Shown here in pieces: positions 4,132 to 37,688 of a stretch of DNA of 64,000 bases. Every line of letters starts with the position of its first letter. Positions within the stretch are counted from its first letter, which is position 1. The DNA is from a virus (lineage: Duplodnaviria > Caudoviricetes). A program made the translations under genes and the position numbers. The DNA is taken from IMG/VR virus record IMGVR_UViG_3300025196_000011, positions 9,030 through 73,029 of that record; one strand, written 5' to 3'. The notes under the pieces are model-generated. The model ran no database searches and had not been told where the DNA came from. It worked only from the letters and a program-made list of their open reading frames with translations.

Positions 4132-5004
4132 TTAACGTCTCATATTGGCTATGTTTTGCGCATCCCACGCGGTCAATGACAAAAAGGATATTTGCGCTTT
4201 GACTGCGATACGATGGCCGTCTTTATTCATGGGGGCGGTGATTGGTGCTGATACGCTCTCAATCACCATAGGGCTGTAGGTTTTGCCGCCGTACTGCAAT
4301 TGCACTAAGGGCGGAATAATTGAGGGAAACATGGATTCGGAAAACCCATTTTTAATGCCGCCAACGATTAAGGATTCAGCCGATAACTTGGCGGCCGACG
4401 CCCATTTTTGTAGCTGCTGCAAGGCGTCCTCAACCTCGGTCTTAGCGCTCGCCCATGCTTGAAACACAAGGCTGCCGCTGATACGCACTGAGTTTGACGA
4501 TGTAAAAATTTGCCGGCTATTCAATTTGGTAAAGTTTGACCGGCCTAAAAGTCCTTGCAATTGCCCCTCGGCTTCTTCAAAGATACCGCTTGCACTGATA
4601 CCGGTGGCCTCGCCAACGGCTGCGCCAATATCTCCCAACGTACCAGTAAAGCCGGTTGGGTCATTGACAGCGGCAAAGAAGCTGTAATAAGCGGCCGATA
4701 CTTGGCCGGATTGAATCATACCCATCAGGTTAGGCAAACGCCCCTCGGGGTTAGACGATTCAAACGGGGTGCTATATTGGCTCTCAATAGTAAATTCGGC
4801 GTCCTCAAACAACGATTCAACGACGGGCGCGGCGGGGTCAACGTTATACGTCTGCTTGCCTTGCCCGCCCTCAAAGTTGCCCTCAATCACCGGCCGTATC
4901 TTAACGATAAGGTTTTTGTTTAACCCCATATCGCCCCAATTGCTGCCTAGCTTTTTACTGCTAGGCGCGCGGGCTTTATTTTTGGCCGCTGGTGGCTTTT
5001 TCAT
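4132..5004 (-). CDS. Putative tail-tube initiator/baseplate cap (T4 gp48/gp54-like fold)
   Basis: FTSSNSVRISGSLVF...PPLVQLQYGGKTYSPMVIESVS pattern; TAATG coupling to darA. Confidence 0.5.
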   Translation of the reverse strand: MKKPPAAKNKARAPSSKKLGSNWGDMGLNKNLIVKIRPVIEGNFEGGQGKQTYNVDPAAPVVESLFEDAEFTIESQYSTPFESSNPEGRLPNLMGMIQSGQVSAAYYSFFAAVNDPTGFTGTLGDIGAAVGEATGISASGIFEEAEGQLQGLLGRSNFTKLNSRQIFTSSNSVRISGSLVFQAWASAKTEVEDALQQLQKWASAAKLSAESLIVGGIKNGFSESMFPSIIPPLVQLQYGGKTYSPMVIESVSAPITAPMNKDGHRIAVKAQISFLSLTAWDAQNIANMRR

Positions 5005-10055: not shown

Positions 10056-10092
10056 GTCGCTGTACCTGTGTTTAAATGAATAAGATGGCTTC

Positions 10093-10132
10093 ATTTTGAC
10101 AAGTTTTAGCGCTCACGCTTTAGGGGTGTTCC
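10093..10132 (-). promoter_or_regulatory. Late promoter (darA-lysis operon)
   Basis: GGAACACC 10125-10132, 26 nt, CAAAAT. Confidence 0.75.
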
Positions 10133-15527: not shown

Positions 15528-16154
15528 TTAGCCGAAAATGGTTACATCGCCTGAGCCGGACACGGGCATAAGGCTGCCAAACTTATCAAGCGCATTGGTT
15601 AGGGCATTGGCAAAAATATCGGTTTTATTGCCATCGATACCCAACTTGCCGCCTTGGCCAAAATAGTTATACCGGCATGACGCATTGACCTGCAAAATCT
15701 GACTACGGCTTGCCGCATCAATCTCACCGCCGCCATCTGAAAAGGTAATCGCACAGTCGATAAGCTCGTATTCACGCAAGCCTTTAATGTTATCGCCATC
15801 ATCGACAAAGCCGTCATAAACGCGGGCAAGTGGAATCACGCCGCCGTGCTTGTTTACTAAATCCTCAGCAAACTTTGAGATAACGCCGCTTTCGGTTTCA
15901 ATAAACGTCCATTGGCTCTCAAAATTGGTCTTACGCACACCAGCGGCATGAGCTTGTAAGCCGCGCGCAAGGTCTACGTCGGCGGTATCATGGTGCGTGG
16001 TAATTGGGCGTTGAAAGTTTTGAATGAGCATGTATAGGTTTTCATAGCCTTGGATAACCAAGACGGCGTTACATGCCAGCATGGCCGCGCCTAGCGACTT
16101 CATGGTTTCATATTGCTTGCGATAAGCGGTTAGGCTTGGGGTACGGGTTTTCAT
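15528..16154 (-). CDS. Tail tube protein (P1 Tub-like)
   Basis: IQGYENLYMLIQNFQRP...FIETESG...ELIDC...NASCRYNY aligns to P1 tube as recalled. Confidence 0.8.
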   Translation of the reverse strand: MKTRTPSLTAYRKQYETMKSLGAAMLACNAVLVIQGYENLYMLIQNFQRPITTHHDTADVDLARGLQAHAAGVRKTNFESQWTFIETESGVISKFAEDLVNKHGGVIPLARVYDGFVDDGDNIKGLREYELIDCAITFSDGGGEIDAASRSQILQVNASCRYNYFGQGGKLGIDGNKTDIFANALTNALDKFGSLMPVSGSGDVTIFG

Positions 16155-16356: not shown

Positions 16357-16986
16357 TTAATACGGCGAAAAGTTAGCCACTTGGTATAGCTCGCCGGCCA
16401 CCGCTACCACAAAATCAAGCGGGCGGGTTTCAACGCCGACGGCCACTTCGGGTACAACGTGCCAAGGCACAAGGCGGGTAATGGTCGGCGCAAGCTCTGA
16501 TAGCTCCGCAATGTCTACGCTTACGTCCATTTTGATACGCACGCGGCTGGTCAAAAAGCGGTTTTGGCCTTTGGTTTCAGCGACAAAACGCGGGTAGCTG
16601 GCGGCCAATTCTTTTGAGTGCCATAACGGGATAACCTTGTTTTGGTTGGGGTATAGCATATCGAGCACAAATTGCAAAAAGCCCACGCCGCGCTCGCTGG
16701 CAATGGCCGTCCAGTTGGAATAGATGACGCCCATTAACTTATCGGACAAGCCGCCATCGTCACGCCTGAGCACGGCAAGGCCGTTTAGCTTGGTGAAGCG
16801 CTCTACCACGTTGCGGCTACCTTGCCACGGTACGCCATAGTTATATATGTCGTTAAACTGCTCTATCTGTAAATCTTGCACGATACCGGTAAAAATACCG
16901 GCCATGGCGCGCTCTAATTCATTGGCGGCATGGCTGTGCAAAATTGGTGATAAAAAGTCATCGGCGTTTAAGGTTACATTGTCCAT
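16357..16986 (-). CDS. Baseplate wedge protein (gpI/gp7-like)
   Basis: Follows J-like gene; RGVGFLQFVLDML pattern. Confidence 0.6.
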   Translation of the reverse strand: MDNVTLNADDFLSPILHSHAANELERAMAGIFTGIVQDLQIEQFNDIYNYGVPWQGSRNVVERFTKLNGLAVLRRDDGGLSDKLMGVIYSNWTAIASERGVGFLQFVLDMLYPNQNKVIPLWHSKELAASYPRFVAETKGQNRFLTSRVRIKMDVSVDIAELSELAPTITRLVPWHVVPEVAVGVETRPLDFVVAVAGELYQVANFSPY

Positions 16987-18437
16987 ATCGCATTACCACT
17001 GTCGGCCGTTCGGGTTAAGTTAATGGTGATACTATTGTCGCTCAAAAACGCCCATTCATGGGGTTTGACGGGGTTTTGTCCGACGTCCTCACCGCTCACG
17101 GTAAAATCACTGATACGGTCTTGAAAGGCCGATATACCGCCGCGCAATCGCGTTGATAATTCCTGCAAGTTAAAGCCATCGGCGTTATGGTGATTGGCGG
17201 CAAGCGAACCTTTGCCATAATCCACAAGCAATAGCTCTTTTATCTGCACGCGCACTGAATCTATATCGTGAACGGCGGCCAAACGGCCAGTTATGGTGAT
17301 TTTGTACGGCCGCTCAATGGCACTCATAACCCTAACGCGGCCATCAAGCAAGCTGTCGGCGCGCGCTACCAATTGCTGAATATCGGTGATTAATTGCGCC
17401 CGCTCAAGCTCGGTGTTGAGCTTGGGTACAATCGCAAGGTTTAAGTGATTGATACTATCAAGCGACGCTCCGTAATAGCGTTCGTGGGCGGTTTCATTCC
17501 ATATCGCCATGTAATTTAAACGGCTCATAAAATGCTGCATAATCAAAAAGGTAAAATTACCCATAAAAACGGCGTTACGGTCATACATCGACGGGAAACT
17601 AGCCAATAGCCGCAATTGATTAATTGTTAAAGGGTTCGCGCCCGCCCGCGTCATATCGCCGGCCTTAAAGTAAATATTTAACGCGCTTTCGTCGCTGTCT
17701 GCAATCTCACTGAGCGACGCTTGTTTTAGGCTGGCTGGGTCAACCTCGCCATAGGTTTGAGTGATGGCCACCTCGTACACTTCGCCGGCTTGCACGGTTT
17801 TGCCCGCGCGGTCACTTGCCCCAAAAATCACGTTAATATTGCTTAGATTGTCGCTTTGTAGGGTGTAGATTGGCTGATTGATGCCGGCGTTCATAAATTT
17901 AGGGGTATGCTGGTAAACCTCACCGCTGGTCACGTTGGTTATGCCAATCGATGAAAAATAGGCGTCGTCGGTGGTGCTTAGGCTCATGGTATAAAACGGC
18001 TCATTTACCGGTATGGTGACACGGCCATAATTGACCGTGCTTTGCTCGGCCAATACTGTTTTGGTTGCGCCCGCGCCCACGGTAATCGCTGCCAGCAAGC
18101 GCCATTGTCTGCCCGTGCCATCTTCAAGCAAACGCCCTTGGGATAAGGTCAAGGTCTTAGCGGCGGCGTTCTCGATGGTTATTTTGTGCTGGCATGGCGT
18201 GGCTACCGGTAAAATGCCCTTGTTGATGGCGTCGGCTATGATGGTTCGGTTTTTGGACTTGATAAACGGCTCAATCGCGTTCACATCATTGTCACGTTTT
18301 AAGAATACGGCCGCCTCAACGATAGACGTTAGCATGGCTCTGACAGTAGGGTCGCCGGCGCGCCATCGCTCCGCCACTTCCGGATAATCGTTAATATGGC
18401 TGCCGATGCTTTCTAGTATGTTATTGCGCTCTGACAT
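16974..18437 (-). CDS. Baseplate J-like wedge protein (P1 BplA-like)
   Basis: 487 aa; W-J-I gene order; LSQGRLLEDGTGRQW...Q motifs. Confidence 0.7.
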   Translation of the reverse strand: MSERNNILESIGSHINDYPEVAERWRAGDPTVRAMLTSIVEAAVFLKRDNDVNAIEPFIKSKNRTIIADAINKGILPVATPCQHKITIENAAAKTLTLSQGRLLEDGTGRQWRLLAAITVGAGATKTVLAEQSTVNYGRVTIPVNEPFYTMSLSTTDDAYFSSIGITNVTSGEVYQHTPKFMNAGINQPIYTLQSDNLSNINVIFGASDRAGKTVQAGEVYEVAITQTYGEVDPASLKQASLSEIADSDESALNIYFKAGDMTRAGANPLTINQLRLLASFPSMYDRNAVFMGNFTFLIMQHFMSRLNYMAIWNETAHERYYGASLDSINHLNLAIVPKLNTELERAQLITDIQQLVARADSLLDGRVRVMSAIERPYKITITGRLAAVHDIDSVRVQIKELLLVDYGKGSLAANHHNADGFNLQELSTRLRGGISAFQDRISDFTVSGEDVGQNPVKPHEWAFLSDNSITINLTRTADSGNAIWTM

Positions 18438-19807: not shown

Positions 19808-20710
19808 TTAGATACCAAGTGATTTTGAATGACGTTTTAAAGCAGCGGCTTGCAAGCCTTTGGTATTGCCTTTGTAGATATTGGCACGAATACCTTTACC
19901 TAATGAGCGCATTTGTTTGCGAATGGCTGTACCGGTCGAGGCTTTACGGCGGGCTTTTTTAAGCGCCGCTTTTTGGCCAGCTTTCAAAAACGGCTTGCCG
20001 CTGATACGCTTATTAATCACGACGCGCTTGCCGTTACGAATCGCTTTAACGGCTTTATAAACCAAGGTTTTGCCGTTTACTTTTTTAACGGTTTTCTTAC
20101 CAACGCGGCGCTTGGCGGCGGCATCAAACATATATTCTGTGTCATTATTCATGCTGTCGAATACTTCGCCCTCGCCCTCGTTGTCATCTTCATCACCGTA
20201 AGCAAAAGCGGCGGCGAACTCTTCAAGGTCATCGCCATCATCAGGCATGTTTTCAAGCACGGTTTCAGCGGCCAAGGTCACGGCGGCGTCTGCGACTTCG
20301 ACGTCGCTATCGAATAAATCTTCAATCACGGCATCTTCAACGCCAAGGGTAGACAAGGCATCAGCAACATGCGCCGAAAAAACAGTTTTTACCTTATCAT
20401 CAACGTCGCCGCCGTCGTACTCTTCGTCGTCGTCATCAGCAAACGCTTCAAGCATCAGCGAATCTAGCAATTCACTCGGTAGCAGCGCGTCGCTGTCGTA
20501 TTCCGTATCATTCAGCATAGCGGCAAGTGAAAAGGCCACCGATAGCGCTTGAATACGCATTTGGCTGGTCGCCACCAAGGCCATACGCTCGCTAATCGGG
20601 TCGGCGTTTAGCTTATCGACGGCTTCTTGTGGGCTTAGGGCGTCAAACTGGTTTTGCGTGCGCTCAAAATTGCGGTCATGGCGGCGTTGCATGGTTTTAG
20701 GGCTTAACAT
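19808..20710 (-). CDS. Prohead core-like protein: acidic pro-region plus strongly basic C-terminal ~103 aa
   Basis: D/E-rich up to YMFDA, then about 33 K/R and no D/E. Confidence 0.65.
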   Translation of the reverse strand: MLSPKTMQRRHDRNFERTQNQFDALSPQEAVDKLNADPISERMALVATSQMRIQALSVAFSLAAMLNDTEYDSDALLPSELLDSLMLEAFADDDDEEYDGGDVDDKVKTVFSAHVADALSTLGVEDAVIEDLFDSDVEVADAAVTLAAETVLENMPDDGDDLEEFAAAFAYGDEDDNEGEGEVFDSMNNDTEYMFDAAAKRRVGKKTVKKVNGKTLVYKAVKAIRNGKRVVINKRISGKPFLKAGQKAALKKARRKASTGTAIRKQMRSLGKGIRANIYKGNTKGLQAAALKRHSKSLGI

Positions 20711-20781: not shown

Positions 20782-22158
20782 TTATTTGGTAACGGTGCTT
20801 TCAAAGTACACTTGGCGCGCGCAACCTTGCGGGCGGCGGCTCAATTTAACATCGGCTTTGGTGAACGGGTTATCGGCGCGCGGCGTGATTTGTAGCGCGT
20901 AATAACGGCCGGCAAGCTCTGTTGACTGCGTAAGCAAGCCCGCGTCTGCGCAAGCGTCTAAGAACTTGGTACAATCATCGGTTGCATCAGTGATAAAGCT
21001 ACTCATGCCTTTCAATAAATGCTTTTTGACGATGGACACAACGACGTTTGCCGTGTAGGTTTCAATCTCTGACGAATTGATAAGCTGTAGCGCGCTGGTG
21101 GTGCTGTCATATTGGGTTAAGACGTCGCCATAAATCCAGCGGTCGCCGCCCTCAAAGCGTTCGTTAATAACGACGTTCACGCCGGCCTTGGCAAGTGCGT
21201 TTTGCGCCTCTTCATCAAGGGTTAGGCCGCCAAACTTTTCGGTATCACGAAACGATAACGGAAAGTCGTAGCCAGCAATCGGACGGTGAATAGGCGGGAT
21301 ACCGGACGCGGTTGTTAAGGCGTTACGCAACAACAATTGCGCCAAGTAGTCACCAACGCACGGCCGCCATTTTTTACGGGCAAGCACGGTCGTTGCATTG
21401 CTTGGACGTGACTTGTTTGGATTCCAAAATACCCATAAGCGGTGGTCGTCGATATTAATGGATTCAGTGATAGCAACGGCCGCTTCCCAATTGTCGATAT
21501 TGCCAATATCTAGCAGTACGTGACAATTGAGCTTGCCCATCGTTTCGGCCAAGGCTTCAACATGCGGCAAGCTGCCAATCTCACACGTTGCGATATAACG
21601 TGGACGGTCGCGCATATCGAGCAAGGCGTTTTTCATTTCAATCGGGGTTAAGTCGGTTACGCTGCTGGCTGGCACGTCGATAACGGCTTCTTGAATACGA
21701 TAAGCGCCAAGGGCATTTAATGCGCCGGCCGTTTCAATGGCCGTCTTAATTGCCTGAGCGTCACTGGTTTTATAACTTGTGACCACGCTTTCAAAAAAGT
21801 CATATTGGCTATCAAGCGCACCGTAAAAATCCAGCTTACTTGTCATATAACCAAAATTGTCGGCGTGGGCTTCTTCCAGTGCTTCAACGCCGCCGCCAGT
21901 GTATAAACGGCCTTTTAATTCCGTTACTTTACTGCCGTCGATTTTGTCTGCAAAAGTCACTTTAAAGACTAAGCTATTGAGCGGGTCACTTGCCGGCGCA
22001 ACGGTTTTTTCATCAACCACCATCACGCGAGCGACGACGTTTGAATCAAAAGCGTAATGCGTGACAAGCTCAATGCTTGCCAGCGCGGCGGGGTTAGGCT
22101 CTGCGCTTAGCGTCATAGATGACGCAAGGATACTGAGGTATAACGTCTGTGGGGTCAT
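20782..22158 (-). CDS. Tail sheath core protein lacking the canonical N-terminal domain (start refined to ATG 22158, 458 aa)
   Basis: C-terminal sheath signature FLDACADAGLL...DVKLSRRPQGCARQVYFESTVTK (P1 gp22 CPTGVARRI-like); PIAGYDFPL; QNALAKAGVNVV. Confidence 0.85.
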   Translation of the reverse strand: MTPQTLYLSILASSMTLSAEPNPAALASIELVTHYAFDSNVVARVMVVDEKTVAPASDPLNSLVFKVTFADKIDGSKVTELKGRLYTGGGVEALEEAHADNFGYMTSKLDFYGALDSQYDFFESVVTSYKTSDAQAIKTAIETAGALNALGAYRIQEAVIDVPASSVTDLTPIEMKNALLDMRDRPRYIATCEIGSLPHVEALAETMGKLNCHVLLDIGNIDNWEAAVAITESINIDDHRLWVFWNPNKSRPSNATTVLARKKWRPCVGDYLAQLLLRNALTTASGIPPIHRPIAGYDFPLSFRDTEKFGGLTLDEEAQNALAKAGVNVVINERFEGGDRWIYGDVLTQYDSTTSALQLINSSEIETYTANVVVSIVKKHLLKGMSSFITDATDDCTKFLDACADAGLLTQSTELAGRYYALQITPRADNPFTKADVKLSRRPQGCARQVYFESTVTK

Positions 22159-22165
22159 AATAAAA

Positions 22166-22231
22166 TGCCTATACTGTGTTGGTATCAACTCAGTATAGGC
22201 AAGGTTTGCTTTAGGCCTTTAGGGGTGTTCC
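22166..22231 (-). promoter_or_regulatory. Late promoter plus inverted repeat (sheath core)
   Basis: GGAACACC 22224-22231, 26 nt, TATACT inside IR TGCCTATACTG...CAGTATAGGCA. Confidence 0.8.
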
Positions 22232-22254
22232 ATCAAAGCGGGCGGCGTTAAAGC

Positions 22255-22962
22255 CTATGCCGGTGCTGGGGTTACTGTCATAGTAAAGTCTGTTTTAAAG
22301 ATGATGGTATCGGTCGCTTTATCATAAACCGCTTGCGATAAGCCGTTTTCATCAAGCGTTGGCCACTTACCGACTAGCATTTCTTTGACCGCATCAAAAA
22401 CATCGACGTGCAAGTCATGGTCGCCTCTAAATAAATCCTCTATTTCTCGCGCCGTGCATCGGTGTAGCGTTAGGGTTGCCGGTTGATAATTAATGCGCAA
22501 ATTTGCATAATCAAAGTTTGCGTCATTAAATCCGGCATTGTCATCAATCAGCGCTTGCAACTCATTGACCGGCGTTGCGTCTACCAATTCCCGCCAGTTA
22601 TACGGCAAGTCGCCGTTTGAGCCAAAAGACTTTAAAAACTCTTTTAACGTGTACTCATTAAAAGCGGCCATTGCCATTGTTGTCGGCGTAGTAATTAAGC
22701 CTCCCCCATTGTGTGGCGGGTAAATATTTGTACCGATAATGGTGTACGGGTCACTACTTGATAAAAAGCTCTTAGAGTACCAATTCCAATTGCCGGAATC
22801 ACCGTTGCTGTACCCCATAAAATACGGGAATAACAAAGAGAATACCGCTATTTGCTCATACTGAATTTCTGACGAATCATCATTATCCACATCGATATAA
22901 CTTTGAATAACGGGTAAGTCATCGTTAATTTGAACCTTTAAACATGCTGCTGCGCCTCTCAT
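22255..22962 (-). CDS. Hypothetical protein (235 aa) translationally coupled to the short sheath-N module gene
   Basis: ATGA overlap with 22959-23321; GGAG RBS; AT-rich. Confidence 0.7.
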   Translation of the reverse strand: MRGAAACLKVQINDDLPVIQSYIDVDNDDSSEIQYEQIAVFSLLFPYFMGYSNGDSGNWNWYSKSFLSSSDPYTIIGTNIYPPHNGGGLITTPTTMAMAAFNEYTLKEFLKSFGSNGDLPYNWRELVDATPVNELQALIDDNAGFNDANFDYANLRINYQPATLTLHRCTAREIEDLFRGDHDLHVDVFDAVKEMLVGKWPTLDENGLSQAVYDKATDTIIFKTDFTMTVTPAPA

Positions 22963-23321
22963 ACACCTATCTCCGTTCGTCTAAAAATAATCTCGGTTAC
23001 TGGCGTCACTTTTAGATAGCTGACGACGCCTTTCTTAGCGGGCGCGCTACCTGTGCTGCCCGTTCGCAAAATAGACAGCTCATTCACGCCATTTTTAAAG
23101 GCGTCCTCTACCGCAAGGTAGCTTGGGTTTGATGGGTCATGGCCTAGCAGCGCTTTGTAATTGCTGGCGGTCACTTTAAACGGTTTGTCTAAGCGGCCGC
23201 GCTTAAAACGGCCAGTGATAACGCCATTGGCCAATGACGGTAGCGGGGTCGTTTCTGACTTATCGATGACGTCTTGCCGCTGAACGCCTACCGCCTCGCC
23301 TAATATCTTAGTTTCAATCAT
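22959..23321 (-). CDS. Sheath N-terminal-domain module 4 (short tail, 120 aa)
   Basis: MIETKILGEAVGVQRQ...ITGRFKRGRLDKPFKVTASNYKALLG...AFKNGVNELSILR. Confidence 0.85.
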   Translation of the reverse strand: MIETKILGEAVGVQRQDVIDKSETTPLPSLANGVITGRFKRGRLDKPFKVTASNYKALLGHDPSNPSYLAVEDAFKNGVNELSILRTGSTGSAPAKKGVVSYLKVTPVTEIIFRRTEIGV

Positions 23322-23326
23322 AATAA

Positions 23327-23392
23327 AAGCCTATATTGAGTTTGGTTTACTCAGTATAGGCTTGGTCTTGCTTATAGGTTAGCGGGTGTTCC
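23327..23392 (-). promoter_or_regulatory. Late promoter plus inverted repeat
   Basis: GGAACACC 23385-23392, 26 nt, TATACT; IR 23327-23363. Confidence 0.8.
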
Positions 23393-23393
23393 T

Positions 23394-24641
23394 TTACGAA
23401 TCAAAGTCTCCATACTCAAAAATTATGCCGTAATTACCAAACTCATTAATAGCTCTTCCTATTAGCATTTGTGTATTAGTAACACCAGCCATATTTATCG
23501 CAAAGTTAGGGCTTTTGCTAGTAGTGTGACTGATACTTAAATAACCGCCTGAGTTGGCGTGATTGATTTCATCAAAATCAATCGGGTTTGACCAATCTGA
23601 CCAGCCATTTTCATTTATCCGTATAGTCGCGCCTTTCACTTGGCTGTCATAAGCGCTGTCTGCAAAAAAATTGCCAAAATTGAGGTTATTTTCTCCGCCA
23701 TTGCCAATGTTTTCGGGGTTATATTCATAAAGCACGTCTGCGCGTGAGGTTTCCGCGTCTCTTGTTCTAATCCTACGGCCATAAGTTGGCGTAATATCGT
23801 CTTGCGGCGGCGTCACCTCTTTAGCTAGCACCGCCCTTGCGCAACTCTTAAAAAGAACGGGGTCGCCATTATCATTAGCTCCATCAACGCCGTAATACAT
23901 ATCTTCATTACGGGGCACTCCCTCAGTTGGGTAAACCGCAAGTGTGGTTTGTACGGGCGTTATTTTTTCTACGCCTAAAAGGACGGGCGGGCTGTCAAAA
24001 TCTACCGCTCCTAAGTCCATTAACATTAAGTCTCTAAGGTCATAAGGTGTGTTGTCAAAAACAACCTTGCCATCTGACGCAATGCCGGAAAATGCCATAA
24101 AAGGCTGATTATTTTCATCATCAAACGACGGCGAGCCATCACCCATAGAAGAAAAATTTTGACATATAAAGCCCATTGAGCCAGCGTTGTAGTCCGTGCC
24201 TAGCAATACAAGGTCTAGCAAAAACTGCATAGGGTTCTCTTGATATTTCGGGTCTAAAGTCGTTAAGGTTTTACGCTGTCCGCCATTCAATGAGGTAGTA
24301 ATATGGAAGTTTGGACTTTCAGCTAAACGGACTTTTACCTCGTTCGGCATACAGTTGCCGCCCGCGCTGCCCGTTTGGCCAACGCGCAAAACAAAAAGCT
24401 CGCTCACGCCGTTTTTAAAGGCGTCCTCAACGGCTAAATAACTGGGGTTAGATGGGTCATGGCCTAAAAGACTGCGGTAATTAGCACTTGTCACGGTAAA
24501 CGGCTTATCCATGCGCCCGCGTTTAAAGTGACCAGCGATAACGCCGTTATTGAGCGAGGGTAAAACCGTCGTTTCTGATTTATCAATCACGTCTTGGCGT
24601 TGTATGCCTACCGCATCGCCTAATATCTTAGTTTCAATCAT
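23394..24641 (-). CDS. Sheath N-domain module 3 fused to a Cys-bracketed domain and a second unknown domain
   Basis: Same 88-aa N-domain; C...KSCA domain; AT-rich cargo. Confidence 0.85.
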   Translation of the reverse strand: MIETKILGDAVGIQRQDVIDKSETTVLPSLNNGVIAGHFKRGRMDKPFTVTSANYRSLLGHDPSNPSYLAVEDAFKNGVSELFVLRVGQTGSAGGNCMPNEVKVRLAESPNFHITTSLNGGQRKTLTTLDPKYQENPMQFLLDLVLLGTDYNAGSMGFICQNFSSMGDGSPSFDDENNQPFMAFSGIASDGKVVFDNTPYDLRDLMLMDLGAVDFDSPPVLLGVEKITPVQTTLAVYPTEGVPRNEDMYYGVDGANDNGDPVLFKSCARAVLAKEVTPPQDDITPTYGRRIRTRDAETSRADVLYEYNPENIGNGGENNLNFGNFFADSAYDSQVKGATIRINENGWSDWSNPIDFDEINHANSGGYLSISHTTSKSPNFAINMAGVTNTQMLIGRAINEFGNYGIIFEYGDFDS

Positions 24642-24650
24642 AATAAAAAA

Positions 24651-24714
24651 CCTATACTGAGTGGATTATCACTCAGTATAGGCTTAGCTTGGCTTGTGAT
24701 TTTAGCGGTGTTCC
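24651..24714 (-). promoter_or_regulatory. Late promoter plus inverted repeat
   Basis: GGAACACC 24707-24714, 26 nt, TATACT; IR 24651-24682. Confidence 0.8.
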
Positions 24715-24715
24715 A

Positions 24716-27181
24716 TTATTCCACGTTTGGCGGTTCTACTGGTTCTACTGGTTCTACTGGCTCTACTGGTTCGACTGGTGGTTCGACTGGTTCGCCGGCC
24801 GCGCTAATCACGTTCTCTTCAAAGCCGTCATTATCAATAAAAGTGACACGAACGCTTATAACCTTGCCGGTATCGGCCTCGGTCAATAGATAACTGTCTG
24901 CCGTGCCAGCTTCAAGGTCATCAGCCAGCCATTGATAAGTAATATCGGTCGGTATGCCGTTGTCATCGGTAATGGTGGCGGTTAGCGTTTCACCTACTAC
25001 CATAAGGCCATTGATGACAACGCTTGCCGGCTTGTTGCTTGGTTGTACCGGCGCGGTCTGCTCACTGGTCACAGCTTCTTCAAAGCCATCATTATCGATA
25101 AAGGCTGCATATACTGACACGACGCCGGCTTCGTCGGCCTCGGTTAGCGTATAGCTGTCTTGCGTGCTCACCTCAATGTTATTAACCATCCATTTGTAAG
25201 TCGCTTCCATGGGTACGCCGTTGGCATCAGTGATAATAGCGGTTAAGGTTTCACCAACTCTTACAATACCGTCGATGGCCACGCTGGCGGGATAGTTTAA
25301 CGGGCTTACCGGTGCGGTTTGCGCACTGGTCACGCTCTCATTAAAACCCTCGCCATCGACAAACATAACGCGCAATGATACCCGCCCGCCCTTGTCGCGC
25401 TCAGTTAGCGTATAACTGGCGGACATGCCAACATAAGATTTATTGACTAGCCATTGATGGCTAACGCTGCTAGATACGCCGTTGGCATCACTAATGGTTG
25501 CTGTCAATGTTTCGCCTACCTTGACCACGCCATTGATAGTGACGCTTGCCGGCTTGTTGAGCGCTTGAATGGGTGCGGTCGGTTCGCTGGTCACGTTCTC
25601 TTCAAAGCCGTCATTATCAATAAAAATAACCTGCAAATTAACGGTTTTACCCTTGTCGGCTTCGGTTAGCGTATAGCGGTCTTGCGTGCCAATTTCAACG
25701 CCGTTTGCCCGCCATTGATAGCTAATATCGCTCGATATGCCGTTGGCGTCAGTGACTACGGGTATCAAGGTTTCGCCTACTCGCGTGATACCAACAATAG
25801 CCACGCTGGCGACTTTATTTAAGGCTTTGACCGGTGCGGTCGGTTCGCTGGTCACGTTCTCTTCAAAGCCGTCATTATCGGTAAATATCACGCGCAACGT
25901 AACGGCCTTGCCTTTATCGGCCTCGGCCAATCTGTAGCGGCTGGCGGTAGCAACCAACGTGCCATCTACCATCCAGCGATAAATAATATTGCTCGACACG
26001 CCATTATCATCGGTAATGGTTGCGGTCAAGGTTTCGCCTACTTTGGCTATTCCATTGATGACCACGCTTGCCGGCTTATTGAGCGCTTTTACAGGTTCGG
26101 TTGTGCTTAAGACGTCCTCGGTAAAGCCATCGTTATCGGTGAAGCTAACTTGCACCGATAGGCGCTTGCCCTTGTCTGTCTCGGTTGGCGTATAACTGCT
26201 TGTATTACCTACCTCAGTACCATCAGCGAGCCATTGATAAGTAACATCGCTTGGCACGCCGTTAGCATCGGCAATCACAGCGGTTAAACGCTCACCTACT
26301 CGAACGTCGCCATAAATGGCCACGCTGGCGGGATTATTGAGGGCGGTTACTGGCGTGCTGGTCGTGGCCGTTGCGCTCTCTTCAAAGCCGTCATTATCAA
26401 TAAAGGTCACTTGCAATGAAATACGCTTGCCTTTGTCGCTATCGGTTAGTTTATACGTGCTCGCCGTGCCAACTTCGACGCCATCGGCCAGCCATTGATA
26501 GCGGATATTACTTGGCACGCCGTTGGTATCGGTAATAGCATTGATTAAGGTTTGCCCTACTCTGAGCGTGCCTTTGATGACAACGCTTGCCGGCTTGTTG
26601 AGCGCTGCTACTGGCTCAGTAACATCACTTGCCGCCGATTCAATAAAGCCTTTTTTGTCAGTAAAGACAACTTGCACCAATAGGCGCTTGCCCTTATCGG
26701 CCTCGGTTACTCTATACGTGCGAGCCGTGCCAACTTCGACGCCGTTTGCTATCCACTTATAGGCTATGTCTTTGGGTAGGCCGTCGCTATCACTGACCAC
26801 AGCGGTTAATAGCTCGCCCACCGTGGCTATGCCGGTAATTAAAACGGCGGCCGGATTGTTAGGGTCGTTTGGTTCTACTGGTACTTCTATTGAGGGCTTG
26901 CCGGCCAATGATGGGTTGCCTATGCGCATCACCATGACTTCACTTGCACCGGCAATAAAAGCGTCATCAACGACGGTGTAACTTGGATTAAATGGGTCGT
27001 CGCCTAGCAAGGCTTGATAGTTATTGGCGGTCACTTTAAACGGTTTGTCCATGCGGCCGCGCTTAAAACGGCCGACAATGACCGATTTAGCCCATGCTGG
27101 TATAACCCTATCGGCTGACCGGTCGATGACGTCTTGGCGCTGAATACCGGCCGCGTCGCCTAGTGTTTTGGTGTCAATCAT
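24716..27181 (-). CDS. Sheath N-domain module 2 fused to 8 tandem Ig-like repeats and a (PVE)n tail (start refined to ATG 27181, 821 aa)
   Basis: MIDTKTLGDAAGIQRQ N-domain; 8 x ~87 aa NKPASV.I.G...VGETLTA.I.D.NG....YQW...Y.LTEADKGK...V.F.DNDGFEE. Confidence 0.9.
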   Translation of the reverse strand: MIDTKTLGDAAGIQRQDVIDRSADRVIPAWAKSVIVGRFKRGRMDKPFKVTANNYQALLGDDPFNPSYTVVDDAFIAGASEVMVMRIGNPSLAGKPSIEVPVEPNDPNNPAAVLITGIATVGELLTAVVSDSDGLPKDIAYKWIANGVEVGTARTYRVTEADKGKRLLVQVVFTDKKGFIESAASDVTEPVAALNKPASVVIKGTLRVGQTLINAITDTNGVPSNIRYQWLADGVEVGTASTYKLTDSDKGKRISLQVTFIDNDGFEESATATTSTPVTALNNPASVAIYGDVRVGERLTAVIADANGVPSDVTYQWLADGTEVGNTSSYTPTETDKGKRLSVQVSFTDNDGFTEDVLSTTEPVKALNKPASVVINGIAKVGETLTATITDDNGVSSNIIYRWMVDGTLVATASRYRLAEADKGKAVTLRVIFTDNDGFEENVTSEPTAPVKALNKVASVAIVGITRVGETLIPVVTDANGISSDISYQWRANGVEIGTQDRYTLTEADKGKTVNLQVIFIDNDGFEENVTSEPTAPIQALNKPASVTINGVVKVGETLTATISDANGVSSSVSHQWLVNKSYVGMSASYTLTERDKGGRVSLRVMFVDGEGFNESVTSAQTAPVSPLNYPASVAIDGIVRVGETLTAIITDANGVPMEATYKWMVNNIEVSTQDSYTLTEADEAGVVSVYAAFIDNDGFEEAVTSEQTAPVQPSNKPASVVINGLMVVGETLTATITDDNGIPTDITYQWLADDLEAGTADSYLLTEADTGKVISVRVTFIDNDGFEENVISAAGEPVEPPVEPVEPVEPVEPVEPPNVE
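24735..24790 (-). repeat. Coding 9-bp tandem repeat (CTACTGGTT-like) encoding PVE repeats
   Basis: ggttctactggttctactggttctactggctctactggttcgactgg... Confidence 0.85.
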
Positions 27182-27190
27182 AATAAAAAA

Positions 27191-27254
27191 GCCCATACTG
27201 AGTAGTGATAGCTCAGTATAGGCCTGATTGGCTTGATTTCTTTGCTGGTGTTCC
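27191..27254 (-). promoter_or_regulatory. Late promoter plus inverted repeat
   Basis: GGAACACC 27247-27254, 26 nt, TATACT; IR 27191-27223. Confidence 0.8.
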
Positions 27255-27261
27255 GGCGCGA

Positions 27262-28488
27262 TTAAACGCCGTACCACTGCCCTATAGCGCACGAACTCAC
27301 GCTCATGTTACCGCCAAACAGTAATTGCACAAGGTCGTTTGTACCGCCGTCGGTTAGCTCAAAATCAACGGTTGTACGCTTAATACCTAAAACGCCATCT
27401 TGGCCATCTGCATACGGCTGTTGGTCGGACGCGCCGTTGAGATACCCGCCACGGTTATTTACTTTAAACTGAAAAGGACTAGCCCCGCCGCCGCCTTGGC
27501 TTTGCATAACGCCAGTATGGCGCAAAAATTCATCAGCAAGGTAGTAGCTTGCCGGCGCGGTATAATTTACCCATTCGCCGCCATCAACGCGGTAACGGCC
27601 GTAAACATCGCCCGTCGGCTCGTTATATCCCTCTTGATATAAAATCGCTGCGCCGGTAGGTATACAGACATTAGGGTCGATATATTTTTCTACCACCGCG
27701 CAACTATGCACTTCAATCGTATCGCCGCTTGCGCCCATTTTATAGAATAAATCAAAATCGGGGTCAACGTCCGGCGTTGGCTTAAAGACTAGCCAATTGT
27801 GTTCGGCGCGTGTGATATTTTTATTAGAGGTAACTGGCATCCCTAACCCCTCGTTACTAATTGGCGGGTAATAAATGCGTGTAGATTTTAGGTCGTAATT
27901 ACCGGTTGGTGTGTTCAACATACCATTGCTAGCAATACCGCAAAACGTATAATAATAAAGCGATTCTCGTTCATAACGCCCATCAATCATCTGACCGCCG
28001 CCAATCACTTCGGCGTCGATTTCATACTCATAATCAAGGAACGCTAACGATTTGCCATCTTGACCTAAATAAGCGCTGCGAGCAAAAGAAGCGTAATCAT
28101 TGTCGTTTAAATCAAAGCTCTTAAACTCACCGCCGTTACGGCTAACGGTTATCCATTTGCTAAACTCACTATCTGGACTTTCGCTGATTAAAGCATAGCT
28201 TGCAATACAAGCCACTCCCGTACCACCAACGCGCAAAATAGACAGCTCGTTTACGCCGTTTTTAAAGGCGTCCTCTACCGCAAGGTAGCTTGGGTTTGAT
28301 GGGTCATAGCCTAGCAGCGCTTTATAGTTGCTAGCGGTCACTTTAAACGGCTTATCCATACGGCCGCGTTTAAAATGGCCGGTTATCACACCATTGGCCA
28401 ATGACGGCAAAACGGTCGTTTCTGACTTATCGATGACGTCTTGCCGCTGGATACCTACGGCGGCGTCTAATATCTTGGTTTCAATCAT
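27262..28488 (-). CDS. Sheath N-domain module 1 fused to two tandem Cys-bracketed domains
   Basis: Same N-domain; C...HSCA and C...SSCA domains. Confidence 0.85.
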   Translation of the reverse strand: MIETKILDAAVGIQRQDVIDKSETTVLPSLANGVITGHFKRGRMDKPFKVTASNYKALLGYDPSNPSYLAVEDAFKNGVNELSILRVGGTGVACIASYALISESPDSEFSKWITVSRNGGEFKSFDLNDNDYASFARSAYLGQDGKSLAFLDYEYEIDAEVIGGGQMIDGRYERESLYYYTFCGIASNGMLNTPTGNYDLKSTRIYYPPISNEGLGMPVTSNKNITRAEHNWLVFKPTPDVDPDFDLFYKMGASGDTIEVHSCAVVEKYIDPNVCIPTGAAILYQEGYNEPTGDVYGRYRVDGGEWVNYTAPASYYLADEFLRHTGVMQSQGGGGASPFQFKVNNRGGYLNGASDQQPYADGQDGVLGIKRTTVDFELTDGGTNDLVQLLFGGNMSVSSCAIGQWYGV

Positions 28489-33879: not shown

Positions 33880-34428
33880 TTACGCGGTGCGTAACCAGTA
33901 ACCGGCGACAATAGACGGCTGAATATTGTTATGCGGCTGGTCGCCGCCCGCGCCCCCAGTCGTAATATTTGCGGCGCTGGCGCTGGTGTTTTGTGTGGCC
34001 GGCCTTGTATTACCTGAGATATTGCCCTTATGAAAATCAACCTCATGCGTATGATTGGGTATTTCCTCAATCGTTAGTGTGTGCTCGTTTTCACCAAACG
34101 TATTACCGATAGTTTTATAATCATCAGGGTCGGCCGCTTTGGTTGATTGACCTACCACCGTGCGCCCCTCTGCATAGCGCACCCATGTGCCATATCCATG
34201 ATGGGCGGCCACGGCGGCGGCGCTTACATGGTTAATCGTCGTGGTATAAATATCACCTACCTTGTACGCCTCAACGCTGCCTATTTGCTGCTTTAACCAT
34301 AAGATATTCTCGGCAAGCTGGCGGCTCGCTAGATTGGCATTACCACCATCACCGCCGACGATGGGTTCGGTTACGTCCACTTGATTGATATTGTCATGCC
34401 ATTGCGCGGTTAGATTTAAGTTGCTCAT
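33880..34428 (-). CDS. Baseplate/fibre-attachment protein (T4 gp10 C-terminal-like module)
   Basis: GGNANLASRQLAENILWLK; YKVGDIY...GTW...GENEHTLTIEEIPNHTH...HNNIQP...YWLRTA. Confidence 0.75.
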   Translation of the reverse strand: MSNLNLTAQWHDNINQVDVTEPIVGGDGGNANLASRQLAENILWLKQQIGSVEAYKVGDIYTTTINHVSAAAVAAHHGYGTWVRYAEGRTVVGQSTKAADPDDYKTIGNTFGENEHTLTIEEIPNHTHEVDFHKGNISGNTRPATQNTSASAANITTGGAGGDQPHNNIQPSIVAGYWLRTA

Positions 34429-34449
34429 ATATAAATTCCTATCGATGAA

Positions 34450-35298
34450 TTATTGGTAACGGGCTTTGCCGTCGTATTTGTGTTTGCCGTCATACTTAAC
34501 GGCGTTAGGGTCTAAGCGCTCCCATATATGCGTTGTCTGCAATGGGTAGGTATTTGGCTGCTGACTGATTGGGTCGCTCGTCATGCCTCTTTTGCCTAGA
34601 TTAAACTGCTCACTTTCGACAAACGGGTCGGCGGGGTCAGTGGCGACGATAATCTTACCGGTGACACGCTGCCAAAACGTTTCAACGCCAAGCAATTCAT
34701 CAAATAGCGGCTTTGGGTTCATATCGATATGGGTATGGTACAAATAACCGATAGGAATAACCGCCCCTAGCAAGGCTTGAAAGTGGGCTTTGTCCACGTA
34801 CTGCGCATGGGCGTTTAGGTCGTCAAGGTGGGCGCTTGATAAGTATTGCGGGTGCGGATTTGGTGCGGCCAAGTGCGCTTCCATGCTGCTTAAGGCTGGG
34901 CTAGCATTGCCGCTTTGTACCTTTACGCGCGCGGTATCAATGCCGGCAAGCGCGATGCCAAACGAGGCGGCAAAATTACCCGCGTTTAGGGTAAAAAATG
35001 GCTGGCTACCGGATAAGGCCACGGCAAACAATACGCCGGTACTGGTCTTAACGCCTACCTCATGCACGTTGACAGTCGCCTTTGATGCCAGCATGGCGCT
35101 AAAGCGTAAAACCTCGCTTTTAGGCTCAATGCCCGCGCTAATAATATCGGCGCTGTCAATCTCGATACTGAGCGCGGTTTCATTACCGGTTACGGTATCC
35201 CTGCCCTCACCGATGGCCACTTCTGATAGCGTGATATTGCCGCTGGCAAGCGCTTGCTTGCCGGCCTTGGTCACGGTAAAAATGATTTGCTTGGCCAT
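34450..35298 (-). CDS. Short tail fibre protein, paralogue of the N-half of 35301-37688
   Basis: VTKAGKQAL...VAIGEG; HLAAPNPHPQYL; IPIGYLYHTH...TGKIIVATDPADPF. Confidence 0.75.
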   Translation of the reverse strand: MAKQIIFTVTKAGKQALASGNITLSEVAIGEGRDTVTGNETALSIEIDSADIISAGIEPKSEVLRFSAMLASKATVNVHEVGVKTSTGVLFAVALSGSQPFFTLNAGNFAASFGIALAGIDTARVKVQSGNASPALSSMEAHLAAPNPHPQYLSSAHLDDLNAHAQYVDKAHFQALLGAVIPIGYLYHTHIDMNPKPLFDELLGVETFWQRVTGKIIVATDPADPFVESEQFNLGKRGMTSDPISQQPNTYPLQTTHIWERLDPNAVKYDGKHKYDGKARYQ

Positions 35299-35300
35299 GA

Positions 35301-37688
35301 TTAACGCCCCTTGGTTGAGCCGCCGGCTAGGTTGTTAATGGTTACGCTGCCCTCTTTTACTAAACCCGCTTGCCCGCCGTTTGCTGGTGGTACGGCGTAA
35401 ACTTTTTGATAGACGGTGTTAAAGCGGCCTTTTAGTTTCTTAAGCGTGGTTTTTTGGCTGTTCACGCCATTACCGCCGCTTACGCCTAAATCTCCGCCCG
35501 CGCCGCCATGGTGCAAGCTCACGTCTAGCGATTCAAAGTAGTTTGGCATGACCAACTCGCCATCCGTATTAGTGCCATCGGCCGCCATACCGCCATAACC
35601 ATACGCGCCGCCTACCGTGCTGCCGCCATTACTAGATTGTTTTAGCGTGACACTGTAATGCTGATACAGCGTATAACCCTGATAGACAAGCGACGGGCGC
35701 GTCTTGTCAACTGCTGCCGTTTCTGACACGTAAGAAATAAGATTGTAATGCAAGCCGTCGCTATGATAGTTAGGCAAAAAGAATACCGGTGAATTGAGCT
35801 TAAAAGCGGGGTCTTTAAACGGTATGGTCTTTTCAATCCGATTATGCGCCGGTGAATACCATGATAGAAAGTCCGTAGCGCCGCTTTTTGGCTGCGTTTG
35901 CGTCATATACATTGGCTGCGGCTCTTTGGTGTAGTCAAACGGCGTATAACCGCTTTCAGCATGATACTGATAAAAGCTCTCTATCGTGTTGCCGTTAGGT
36001 GCGCGGCGGCCATACGGCGCACCGCCGCCCGCGCCAGCCCCGCCTATCGTTTCAAAAACGCCATCAGGGCTAAACTCACTTGGCGCGTTAAAGATGACCA
36101 CGCCACCGCCACCGCCGCCACCGCCGCCGCCCGCAATCGTGCCGTAATTTTCTACTATCATTTTCCCCTTAATGGCCGTGCCGCCATCTTCTCCATCTTG
36201 CGGCAAGGTTAAACGGGTGGTATCAGTCCAATTATTTATTACAATACCTACGCCGCTTAGCCATTCGGACGCCCGCCCGCCCGCGCCGCCGCGTCCTAAA
36301 ATACGGCCGCGATTTTCAACGGTTATTTGCGAGCCTACCGGCCATTTTGTGCCGTCTAGTATCGCTGGCTGCGTGGTATCTGCTGCTATAACGTCTACGC
36401 CCTCGTTGATGATAAAGCGCACCTTATCGGTCGATACCGGATAAGCGCCGCTATGCTGTTTAAAATATTCATCGAGCACAATACCGTTTAGCGTGCTGCT
36501 GGTGATATGTATGAATTTCTCGGTACGTCCAGCGTCCATAATCGGTACATTCATCGATAGATTTGCTGGCGCGCCTACGGTTAGCCGTACATGCTTTTGC
36601 GCTTCTGCGATATTGTCATCAGGCGTGGTCGTATAGTCGATAATAGCGCTGCCATTCTTTAAAATGACTGAGCCGGACTTGGTGGCATCAGGCGTGGTTA
36701 CGTCATTGCTGGCGCTGTTTAATGCGCCCTCTTTAACCGTCCATTTTAGGATTTGGCCATCAGGCACGTTGCTTGCGGTTAAGGTAAAGCGGATAGCTGC
36801 GCCCTCGTCAATGGCCGTCTTATTGGCGATTACTTGCCAAACGGTTTCAATCACGTCATCAGGGTTATAGCGCTCAAAAACGTTGGTCGTATAAAGCGGA
36901 TAGGTATGCGGACGGTTCACGCCCGCGTCGCTGGTCATGCCCTTTTGGCCAATCGTCAATCCAACGTCTTTAATAAACGGGTCGGCGGGATCGGTGGCGA
37001 CGATAATTTTGCCGGTGAGGCGACGCCAAGCGGTTTCAATGCCAAGCAGCCTGTCAAAATCAGGCTTAGGATTGACGGCGCTATGGGTATGATGCAAATA
37101 GCCGATAGGGATTAGCACCTCTAGCAGCAATTGAAAGCGTTTAAAATCCAAGTATTGCGGGTGCGGGTCTTTGGTCACGTCTAAATGCTCAAGCCCTAAA
37201 TATTGCGGGTGCGGATTTGGTGCGGCCAAGTGGTTTTGCATGATGGTCGGCATCAAGCTGGCGTTAGGATTGATTGTGACCGTTACCTTATCGGCGCTGG
37301 CTTCATTGAGCGCCAAGCCGAAAGCGACGACAAAGGTTACGTTCGGGTATAGGGTGAATAACGGCTCATTGATGGCCGCCGCAATAGCAAATAGCGTGCC
37401 GTCCTCACTCAGTAGGCCAAGCTCATAAACGGGCGTGATTTTATCGGCGTAAATGGTGGCACTAAACTGCAAGGTATTGGACGCATCAACCTCACCGGAC
37501 GCGGTGGCAATCTTAGTAATAAGGGTTTTGATTTTGGTTTCTTTGCCGGTTGGCGTATAACGGCCTGAGCCGATAGCAACATGCGTAAGATTGACAGACA
37601 AATTGACCGCATCGCCGGTCGTGTTTAACGCGCCACGTTTGCCGGCGTCGGTTATTTTTAGAATGATAGGTTTGCTAGGTGTGGCCAT
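35301..37688 (-). CDS. Long tail fibre with Ig-like domain and Gly-rich gp38-like adhesin C-terminus
   Basis: ITDAGKRGA N-terminus, HPQYL repeats; GRILGRGGAGG...ENYGTIAGGGGGGGGG...GGGAPYG. Confidence 0.8.
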   Translation of the reverse strand: MATPSKPIILKITDAGKRGALNTTGDAVNLSVNLTHVAIGSGRYTPTGKETKIKTLITKIATASGEVDASNTLQFSATIYADKITPVYELGLLSEDGTLFAIAAAINEPLFTLYPNVTFVVAFGLALNEASADKVTVTINPNASLMPTIMQNHLAAPNPHPQYLGLEHLDVTKDPHPQYLDFKRFQLLLEVLIPIGYLHHTHSAVNPKPDFDRLLGIETAWRRLTGKIIVATDPADPFIKDVGLTIGQKGMTSDAGVNRPHTYPLYTTNVFERYNPDDVIETVWQVIANKTAIDEGAAIRFTLTASNVPDGQILKWTVKEGALNSASNDVTTPDATKSGSVILKNGSAIIDYTTTPDDNIAEAQKHVRLTVGAPANLSMNVPIMDAGRTEKFIHITSSTLNGIVLDEYFKQHSGAYPVSTDKVRFIINEGVDVIAADTTQPAILDGTKWPVGSQITVENRGRILGRGGAGGRASEWLSGVGIVINNWTDTTRLTLPQDGEDGGTAIKGKMIVENYGTIAGGGGGGGGGGVVIFNAPSEFSPDGVFETIGGAGAGGGAPYGRRAPNGNTIESFYQYHAESGYTPFDYTKEPQPMYMTQTQPKSGATDFLSWYSPAHNRIEKTIPFKDPAFKLNSPVFFLPNYHSDGLHYNLISYVSETAAVDKTRPSLVYQGYTLYQHYSVTLKQSSNGGSTVGGAYGYGGMAADGTNTDGELVMPNYFESLDVSLHHGGAGGDLGVSGGNGVNSQKTTLKKLKGRFNTVYQKVYAVPPANGGQAGLVKEGSVTINNLAGGSTKGR

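Follow-up and report, generated by a model that had tools for sequence, protein, structure and literature searches.

The window analysed here is a stretch of 64,000 nucleotides (positions 9,030 to 73,029) from a 73,029-bp provirus record of IMG/VR, IMGVR_UViG_3300025196_000011, which is rated 100% complete by CheckV. Six open reading frames (ORFs) lie in tandem on its minus strand between positions 28488 and 20782 and encode, in this order, four tail sheath modules (mod1, mod2, mod3 and mod4), a detached cargo protein and a sheath core (Table 1). The modules and the core are complementary parts of one sheath protein; the split, its position and the homology of the two parts were established computationally. 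We consider it likely that the sheath protomer is a heterodimer, and that the four paralogous small subunits compete for one core to give a mixed, decorated tail surface. The phage is P1-like and comes from Psychrobacter-type bacteria.

Complementary parts of one sheath protein

The core matches the tail sheath family phrog_1036 at profile positions 112-531 (E 2.7e-57). Its AlphaFold2 model, which was calculated from a 45-row alignment and has a predicted local distance difference test score (pLDDT) of 87, has the sheath fold and contains domains I and II of the conserved body. In a Foldseek search the top matches of this model were P1 sheath chains (E 2e-14), and the model superposed on residues 99-518 of P1 gp22 with a Z-score of 20.4 and a root-mean-square deviation (rmsd) of 5.5 for 388 aligned residues. 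The alignment likewise starts at residues 88-97 in T4 gp18, Lin1278, DSY3957, KP1 and phiKZ. The core's own chain has neither the N-terminal arm of the handshake nor the first domain-II segment; it starts at the equivalent of gp22 residue 97-99. At the other end, the part aligned to gp22 518 is followed by 11 further residues, with a strand modelled at 450-457. When the core profile was searched against the sequences of solved structures, nothing useful came up (best E 0.5, a designed protein).

The missing arm and domain-II segment were found on the four module proteins, so that they are present in the pair of module and core. All four modules match phrog_1036 at profile positions 7-95. Residues 32-90 of the mod1 model superposed on P1 gp22 37-99 (Z 5.3, rmsd 2.0, 25% identity) and also aligned with T4 gp18 26-84, and the same N-terminal segment was matched in over 25 further sheath structures. 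With so small a piece the Z values stay modest, and the weight lies in the consistent target region. The sequence searches of solved structures were weak, and structure comparison was therefore needed: the top match of the module profile was P1 Gp22, but with an E-value of 0.38. In Pfam the modules gave only a weak match to Gp18_domIII_N (E 0.011-0.032), below the cut-off. In P1 gp22, residues 3-34 form the handshake, residues 35-99 and 243-425 form domain II, residues 100-242 form the outward-extending domain III, and domain I makes the tube contact; beyond the N-terminal arm, no other obvious contacts were seen between the sheath subunits (PMC10304247).

In one relative, P0169, the two parts are fused in a protein of 545 aa, which shares 47% identity with the module over residues 2-86 and 39% with the core, and covers phrog_1036 positions 4-529. 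Its gene lies in P1-like surroundings: a DarA_N gene is found downstream, the ribosome-binding site is an ordinary GGAG, and no further module was found within 10 kb. The comparison indicates that the two parts were once one gene. From the fused relative together with the complementarity of profile and structure, we therefore concluded that the split is a derived fission of a normal sheath gene.

The complex of the core (alignment A2) with the N-terminal module (N-module) of mod4 (alignment A3) was predicted in three runs, along with three controls. The interaction prediction score from aligned errors (ipSAE) was 0.88 in all three runs, whereas the best of the three controls gave 0.00. In the benchmark, 58 of 80 solved complexes reached a value of 0.88, as did 2 of 110 mismatched pairs. 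The contact agreement was at least 88%, and the pLDDT of the partner was at least 72. The predicted interface is made of module residues 27-89 and includes residues 1 and 3 of the core. Module residues 1-26 are free in the prediction, as would be expected of an arm that reaches the neighbouring protomer. The predicted complex is to be read as a fit to the sheath fold, not as proof of binding.

An earlier note on this DNA had proposed that the domain shared by the modules is a sheath N-terminus and that the core is not a complete sheath subunit by itself. Both proposals agree with the results: the profile and structural matches of the modules fall on the N-terminus of the sheath, and the core model covers gp22 99-518 only. 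The module-core complex which that note expected from structure prediction passed the controls in the case of the mod4 N-module.

The modules, their cargo and their relatives

The four module proteins have residues 1 to about 93 in common, which define an N-module of about 90 aa, and their identity to mod4 in this part is 59-89%. E-values among the four modules in tblastn ranged from 3e-36 to 1e-52, and a scan of the whole record found these 4 copies only. Across 16 modules of the window and related phages, 30 of 95 columns are invariant, with arm residues among them. The earlier note had described four adjacent genes that share about 88 aa at their start and then diverge, next to a core gene without this domain. 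The ORF positions and the identities confirm this description. Its assignment of the extensions to Cys-bracketed domains, eight Ig-like repeats and a short tail was also recovered, the tail of mod4 being about 27 aa long.

The eight repeats of mod2, each of about 87 aa, match PKD_3 (E 1.7e-18), AIR9-Ig and Hoc-like phrog_4069 profiles. In mod1 and mod3 the first cargo domain is common to both and is bracketed by the invariant Cys94 and Cys263 (mod1 numbering); these two residues do not vary among the relatives of mod1. With a pLDDT of 57 the model of mod1 was poor, and Foldseek returned no structural match for it at E <= 0.001. For residues 279-408 of mod1, the FN3/Ig-like structural matches had Z-scores of 3.6 or lower and were not significant, and look-ups in the ESM Atlas gave no usable match for the identity of the cargo.

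The detached ORF was absent from the earlier note. Its start overlaps the stop of mod4 as ATGA, and its N-terminal Cys motif is the same as that of the cargo domains. It appears to belong to the module system, and BLAST found no similarity between it and mod1 or mod3. A tail and then a further ORF at most 50 nt away were seen in seven modules, six of them short (110-127 aa) and one, of locus L007, long; in this count, L016 repeats L006. The ATGA overlap occurs in 3 of these seven module-ORF pairs, and the tail motif S/N-Y-[LIV]-x-[LIV] in 6 of them. In the same six pairs (window, L006, both of L007, L008 and L018) the next ORF has '..AACLKV..' or '..AACAK..' at its start, and another Cys follows some 160 residues after this motif. 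The seventh pair, L012, has the ATGA overlap, but its tail and next ORF are without these motifs. In L021 the following ORF starts with '..GCLKV..'. The bare modules of 91-92 aa have neither a tail nor a following ORF of the detached-cargo type. In the simplest reading of these sequences, the product of the detached ORF may be a separately made cargo that docks on the module tail.

A programmed frameshift from mod4 into the detached ORF is unlikely: the second frame is open only 18 nt before its ATG, no slippery heptamer is present, and GGAG precedes the ATG. Termination-reinitiation would fit the arrangement better. It was also observed that two loci, L014 (7500-7985) and L023 (10324-10809), have a conserved 161-aa ORF between a bare 92-aa module (m1) and a module of a second subtype, which is described below.

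In related phages, 115 protein clusters of the core family retain a length of about 458 aa, at identities that go down to about 30%, and Psychrobacter, Faucicola and Moraxella are among the named sources. The module search gave 59 protein clusters of 229-644 aa with N-module identities of 63-94%. The cargo of these clusters and of the window's four modules falls into at least seven unrelated groups, and one large, very variable Cys-bracketed family accounts for 45 of the 63 proteins. Recognisable cargo comprises BspA-type leucine-rich repeats (LRR; PF03382, LRR_5), a LamG-type lectin fold (PF13385) and Ig/PKD-like repeats. The number of modules in Moraxellaceae phages ranges from one bare module of 91-103 aa (L010, L011, L026) to at least six (Acinetobacter lwoffii, L027/L028). 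Relatives with a variable number and content of modules, which the earlier note had anticipated, were thus found.

The modules lie mostly immediately upstream of the core. Some loci have them downstream, either after the gene of a phrog_1053 protein (ABMM1, L022) or about 5-6 kb away (L015, L025). ABMM1 is a cultured, plaque-forming temperate Acinetobacter phage with a bare module; in the ABMM1 paper both genes are listed as 'tail sheath proteins (Gp12; Gp14)' and the split is passed over. Searches of phage collections gave ABMM1 and a weak Xanthomonas phage match only.

Two arrays mark the extremes. That of A. lwoffii BE44 (L027 9992-14676 and L028 1-2371, the two ends of one 81.8-kb contig) has at least six tandem N-module genes of 181-561 aa, one of them with BspA-type LRR cargo, and is the largest seen. 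In a metagenome-assembled genome of Moraxellaceae (L026 9986-11652) the split is minimal: a bare module of 103 aa has a stop codon that overlaps the start of a 452-aa core. This locus looks like the fission at its simplest stage.

In a tree of 37 N-modules, copies from the same genome mostly cluster, namely mod1, mod3 and mod4 of the window, both copies of L021, both of L025 and four of A. lwoffii. This clustering would fit repeated duplication or gene conversion that matches every copy to one core. The N-module of mod2 clusters with m2 of L014 and m2 of L023, and these three are an older second subtype.

Proposed assembly of the sheath and its alternatives

In the mechanism that we propose, the sheath gene of a P1-like lineage was split in two, and each protomer would be a heterodimer of core and N-module. 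The core would supply the outward domain, most of domain II, the tube-contacting domain I and the C-terminal arm. In the N-module, residues 1 to about 30 would be the N-terminal arm, which pairs with the C-terminal arm of a neighbour in the handshake, and residues from about 30 to 90 would be the first domain-II segment, packed on the core. The chain is broken where a one-piece sheath exits the body for the outward domain, and the cargo at the C-terminus of the module should therefore face outward. By the position of the split, the cargo, including the repeats of mod2, would be exposed on the virion. The small-subunit gene would then have been multiplied, with four paralogs that retain the arm and interface residues and differ in cargo; the short tail of mod4 may dock a separately made cargo protein. 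Most likely the modules would be rivals for a single site on the core, and we infer that all four co-assemble into one mosaic tail with a mixture of displayed domains. The cargo would have an adhesive role, and the displayed domains are probably weak binders of cell-surface glycans or proteins. The tail would thus probably work as a display scaffold.

Several points weigh against this reading. The core model folds confidently by itself, and its dependence on a module is deduced from homology. The high complex score can arise from likeness to solved one-piece sheaths, and the tested partner was the mod4 N-module only. No known fold could be assigned to the cargo of mod1, of mod3 or of the detached ORF. 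In L015 and L025 the modules are about 5-6 kb from the core, and tight co-regulation is not universal. Full occupancy by modules of 400-800 aa might also be sterically hard, which bears on the stoichiometry among the modules.

An unlikely alternative is an assembly in which one small subunit, mod4 or another that is made in bulk, completes the trunk, and the cargo-bearing paralogs are rare or are placed at special rings near the baseplate or neck. The largest cargoes may not fit into every sheath site, most relatives have bare or short modules, and such a module is the sole one in L010, L011, L026 and ABMM1. Sheaths with several paralogs, of which some are position-specific (e.g. Afp4 and Pvc4), are found in AFP and PVC (PMC10304247). 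The same arm and interface residues are, however, kept in all paralogs. Moreover, L013 (287 aa), L020 (314 aa) and L017 (252, 245 and 261 aa) have cargo-bearing modules only and no bare one; cargo-bearing modules must therefore be able to form a whole trunk.

It is still less probable that the modules are alternatives to one another, so that recombination at the direct repeats of about 270 bp, or termination at the hairpins described below, leaves one main module per phage or burst and the variation lies at the level of the population. The N-module repeats are indeed direct, similar in DNA sequence and homogenised within the genome, the elements between the genes have a terminator-like hairpin and U-run, and the number of modules differs among relatives. 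The four genes, however, are intact and co-oriented, and each has its own start codon; in their vicinity neither invertase nor shufflon signals were seen. A deletion between direct repeats could not be reversed, and serial terminators would starve the core, which is last in order yet needed most. As for decay or an assembly artefact, we regard it as scarcely credible that this arrangement is that of a defective prophage with pseudogene fragments and a sheath gene that is broken. The record is classed as a provirus, and the pair of mod4 and the detached ORF resembles a disrupted gene at first sight, but this pairing of short module and detached ORF is itself conserved, as are the modules, strongly. 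The same split with a core of about 458 aa occurs in the 115 protein clusters, in many independent contigs and in the plaque-forming ABMM1, and the record has the full CheckV completeness noted above.

The preferred reading, a heterodimeric protomer with competing small subunits, could be extended to an exchangeable display at two levels. Recombination at the N-module and the intercistronic cassette would exchange cargo between phages, and some cargo would be unfused and docked on the S-Y-[LIV]-x-[LIV] tail. We hold this extension to be possible but doubtful. If it is true, one tail would carry hundreds of mixed, replaceable binding domains, which would widen or tune host adsorption.

Phage sheaths have been viewed as polymers of one protein, and a two-protein sheath as a hallmark of type VI secretion systems (T6SS). 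In the T6SS sheath, the N-terminal linking strand comes from the small polypeptide, as does part of the middle domain. The protomer of small and large polypeptide in TssB/TssC (VipA/VipB) resembles the one predicted here from the ipSAE of 0.88 against 0.00, and core residues 169-447 superpose on VipB/TssC chains with a Z-score of about 13. The parallel to TssB/TssC drawn in the earlier note therefore stands for the topology but not for the sequence family, since the modules had no TssB/VipA match in Pfam. The window is a P1-like structural region in a 73-kb provirus, and no T6SS genes, such as those of the membrane complex and ClpV recycling, and no recycling domain are present. TssB, unlike the modules, is not multiplied and carries no cargo. 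Because a close fused relative exists, the fission here is independent of that of the T6SS.

The closest solved homologue of both halves is P1 gp22 (PDB 8JAN, 8JAJ and 9AY3; PHROG 1036). The likeness to P1 extends to the domain order, the putative handshake arms and the type of phage, including its Dar, Hdf, PmgG and baseplate neighbours. P1 gp22, however, is one chain of 529 aa and the sole sheath protein of P1 (PMC10304247), whereas the equivalent of gp22 3-99 is here on separate, multiplied and cargo-bearing proteins. In extracellular contractile injection systems, one sheath is also made from more than one gene product (Afp2/3/4, Pvc2/3/4). These paralogs are full-length sheath proteins, whereas here only the N-module of about 90 aa is repeated and the copies share one core, the single core gene among the ORFs of the window. 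One-piece phage sheaths with additional, covalently inserted Ig-like domains are known (Evseev et al. 2022, PMC9230969), and Ig-like or beta-sandwich domains on the virion surface have been proposed to aid adhesion (PMC9230969; Fraser et al. 2006 as cited there). The matches of mod2 to Hoc-like and PKD/Ig profiles recall these sheaths and Hoc-type decoration. An inserted domain is the same on every subunit of a one-piece sheath, while the domains here are on exchangeable, separately encoded subunits. Literature searches found no description of a phage sheath that is split and whose small subunits are paralogous and carry cargo, and a 2022 survey of phage sheath evolution (PMC9230969) makes no mention of split or paralogous forms.

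An independent and recent fission in phages, with both fused and split relatives, would provide a natural experiment on the origin of the TssB/TssC arrangement. The paralogous small subunits point to a way of decorating about 300 tail positions with mixed binding domains while the contractile body is left untouched. This bears on host adsorption and suggests a scaffold for display in trans in phage engineering. As the bare two-piece form occurs in the cultured ABMM1 and the multi-module forms in Psychrobacter lysogens, the system is testable now.

Intercistronic cassettes and neighbouring genes

In loci of the Psychrobacter type, the same spacer of about 75 nt precedes each core gene and each module that is not the first, with m2 of L014 as the sole exception. 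The spacer is a cassette of three parts. A GGAACAC(C) box is placed immediately 3' of the preceding stop codon; about 26 nt further on there is a CCTATACT-containing stem-loop of 12-16 bp with RNA folding z-scores of -4.2 to -5.6; and a U-run directly abuts the ATG, with no clear Shine-Dalgarno sequence. The stems vary between loci and their pairing is kept. The cassette is not present before the first module, in fused-form loci or in Acinetobacter loci, the A. lwoffii array included.

Table 1. Module, cargo and core genes and intercistronic cassettes in the window
Feature	Position	Strand	Description
mod1 (module 1)	27262..28488	(-)	408 aa; N-module residues 1 to ~93 and two beta-rich cargo regions
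mod2 (module 2)	24716..27181	(-)	821 aa; N-module of older second subtype, eight ~87-aa Ig/PKD-like repeats, Pro-Val-Glu-rich tail
mod3 (module 3)	23394..24641	(-)	415 aa; N-module, Cys-bracketed cargo domain (mod1-related), further domain
mod4 (module 4)	22959..23321	(-)	120 aa; N-module and ~27-aa tail with motif S-Y-[LIV]-x-[LIV]
Detached cargo ORF	22255..22962	(-)	235 aa; ATGA overlap with mod4; N-terminal '..AACLKVQIN' Cys motif
Sheath core	20782..22158	(-)	458 aa; outward domain, rest of domain II, domain I, putative C-terminal arm
Cassette before mod2	27182..27261	(-)	GGAACACC box; 12-16-bp stem-loop 27192-27222; U-run up to ATG
Cassette before mod3	24642..24715	(-)	Stem-loop 24651-24682
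Cassette before mod4	23322..23393	(-)	Stem-loop 23330-23360
Cassette before core	22159..22233	(-)	Stem-loop 22168-22199

The late promoters of P1 have a 9-bp inverted repeat for Lpa (PMC10695390). The possibility that the hairpin is a general late-promoter motif of the phage was rejected, as both hairpin arms were found within the 64 kb at the four sheath-family sites only. The position of the cassette, abutting the ATG, does not fit a promoter of the downstream gene. Its form would fit a leaky terminator, an element of RNA processing or stability, or a protein-bound palindrome. Most likely the cassette serves to set the relative output of the modules and the core.

The neighbours of the sheath genes are P1-type genes, with portal, PmgG-like, long DarA-like, Hdf-like, baseplate, tube and tail-fibre genes in the window. 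A myophage tail neighbourhood is present (tube 15528-16154, baseplate 16974-18437, tail fibres 33880-37688), and close relatives come from Psychrobacter genomes and viral contigs of 65-77 kb.

The gene of the phrog_1053 protein (300 aa, 19808-20710, minus strand) always comes after the core gene. In ABMM1 and L022 it is located between the core and the bare N-module, and it also lies 3' of the fused sheath gene in L029 (281 aa) and L030 (262 aa). This protein may be a sheath-associated factor. The adjoining minus-strand tail-fibre genes at 34450-35298 (282 aa) and 35301-37688 (795 aa) have about 170 N-terminal aa in common (phrog_4545 / phrog_3737) and then diverge; this is the usual shared-anchor layout of alternative fibres, and is parallel to the logic of the sheath modules. 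On the minus strand at 5004-10094, a protein of 1696 aa matches PHROGs for infection-released phage proteins (DarA-like) at residues from about 170 to 470, and it far exceeds the matched profiles in length.

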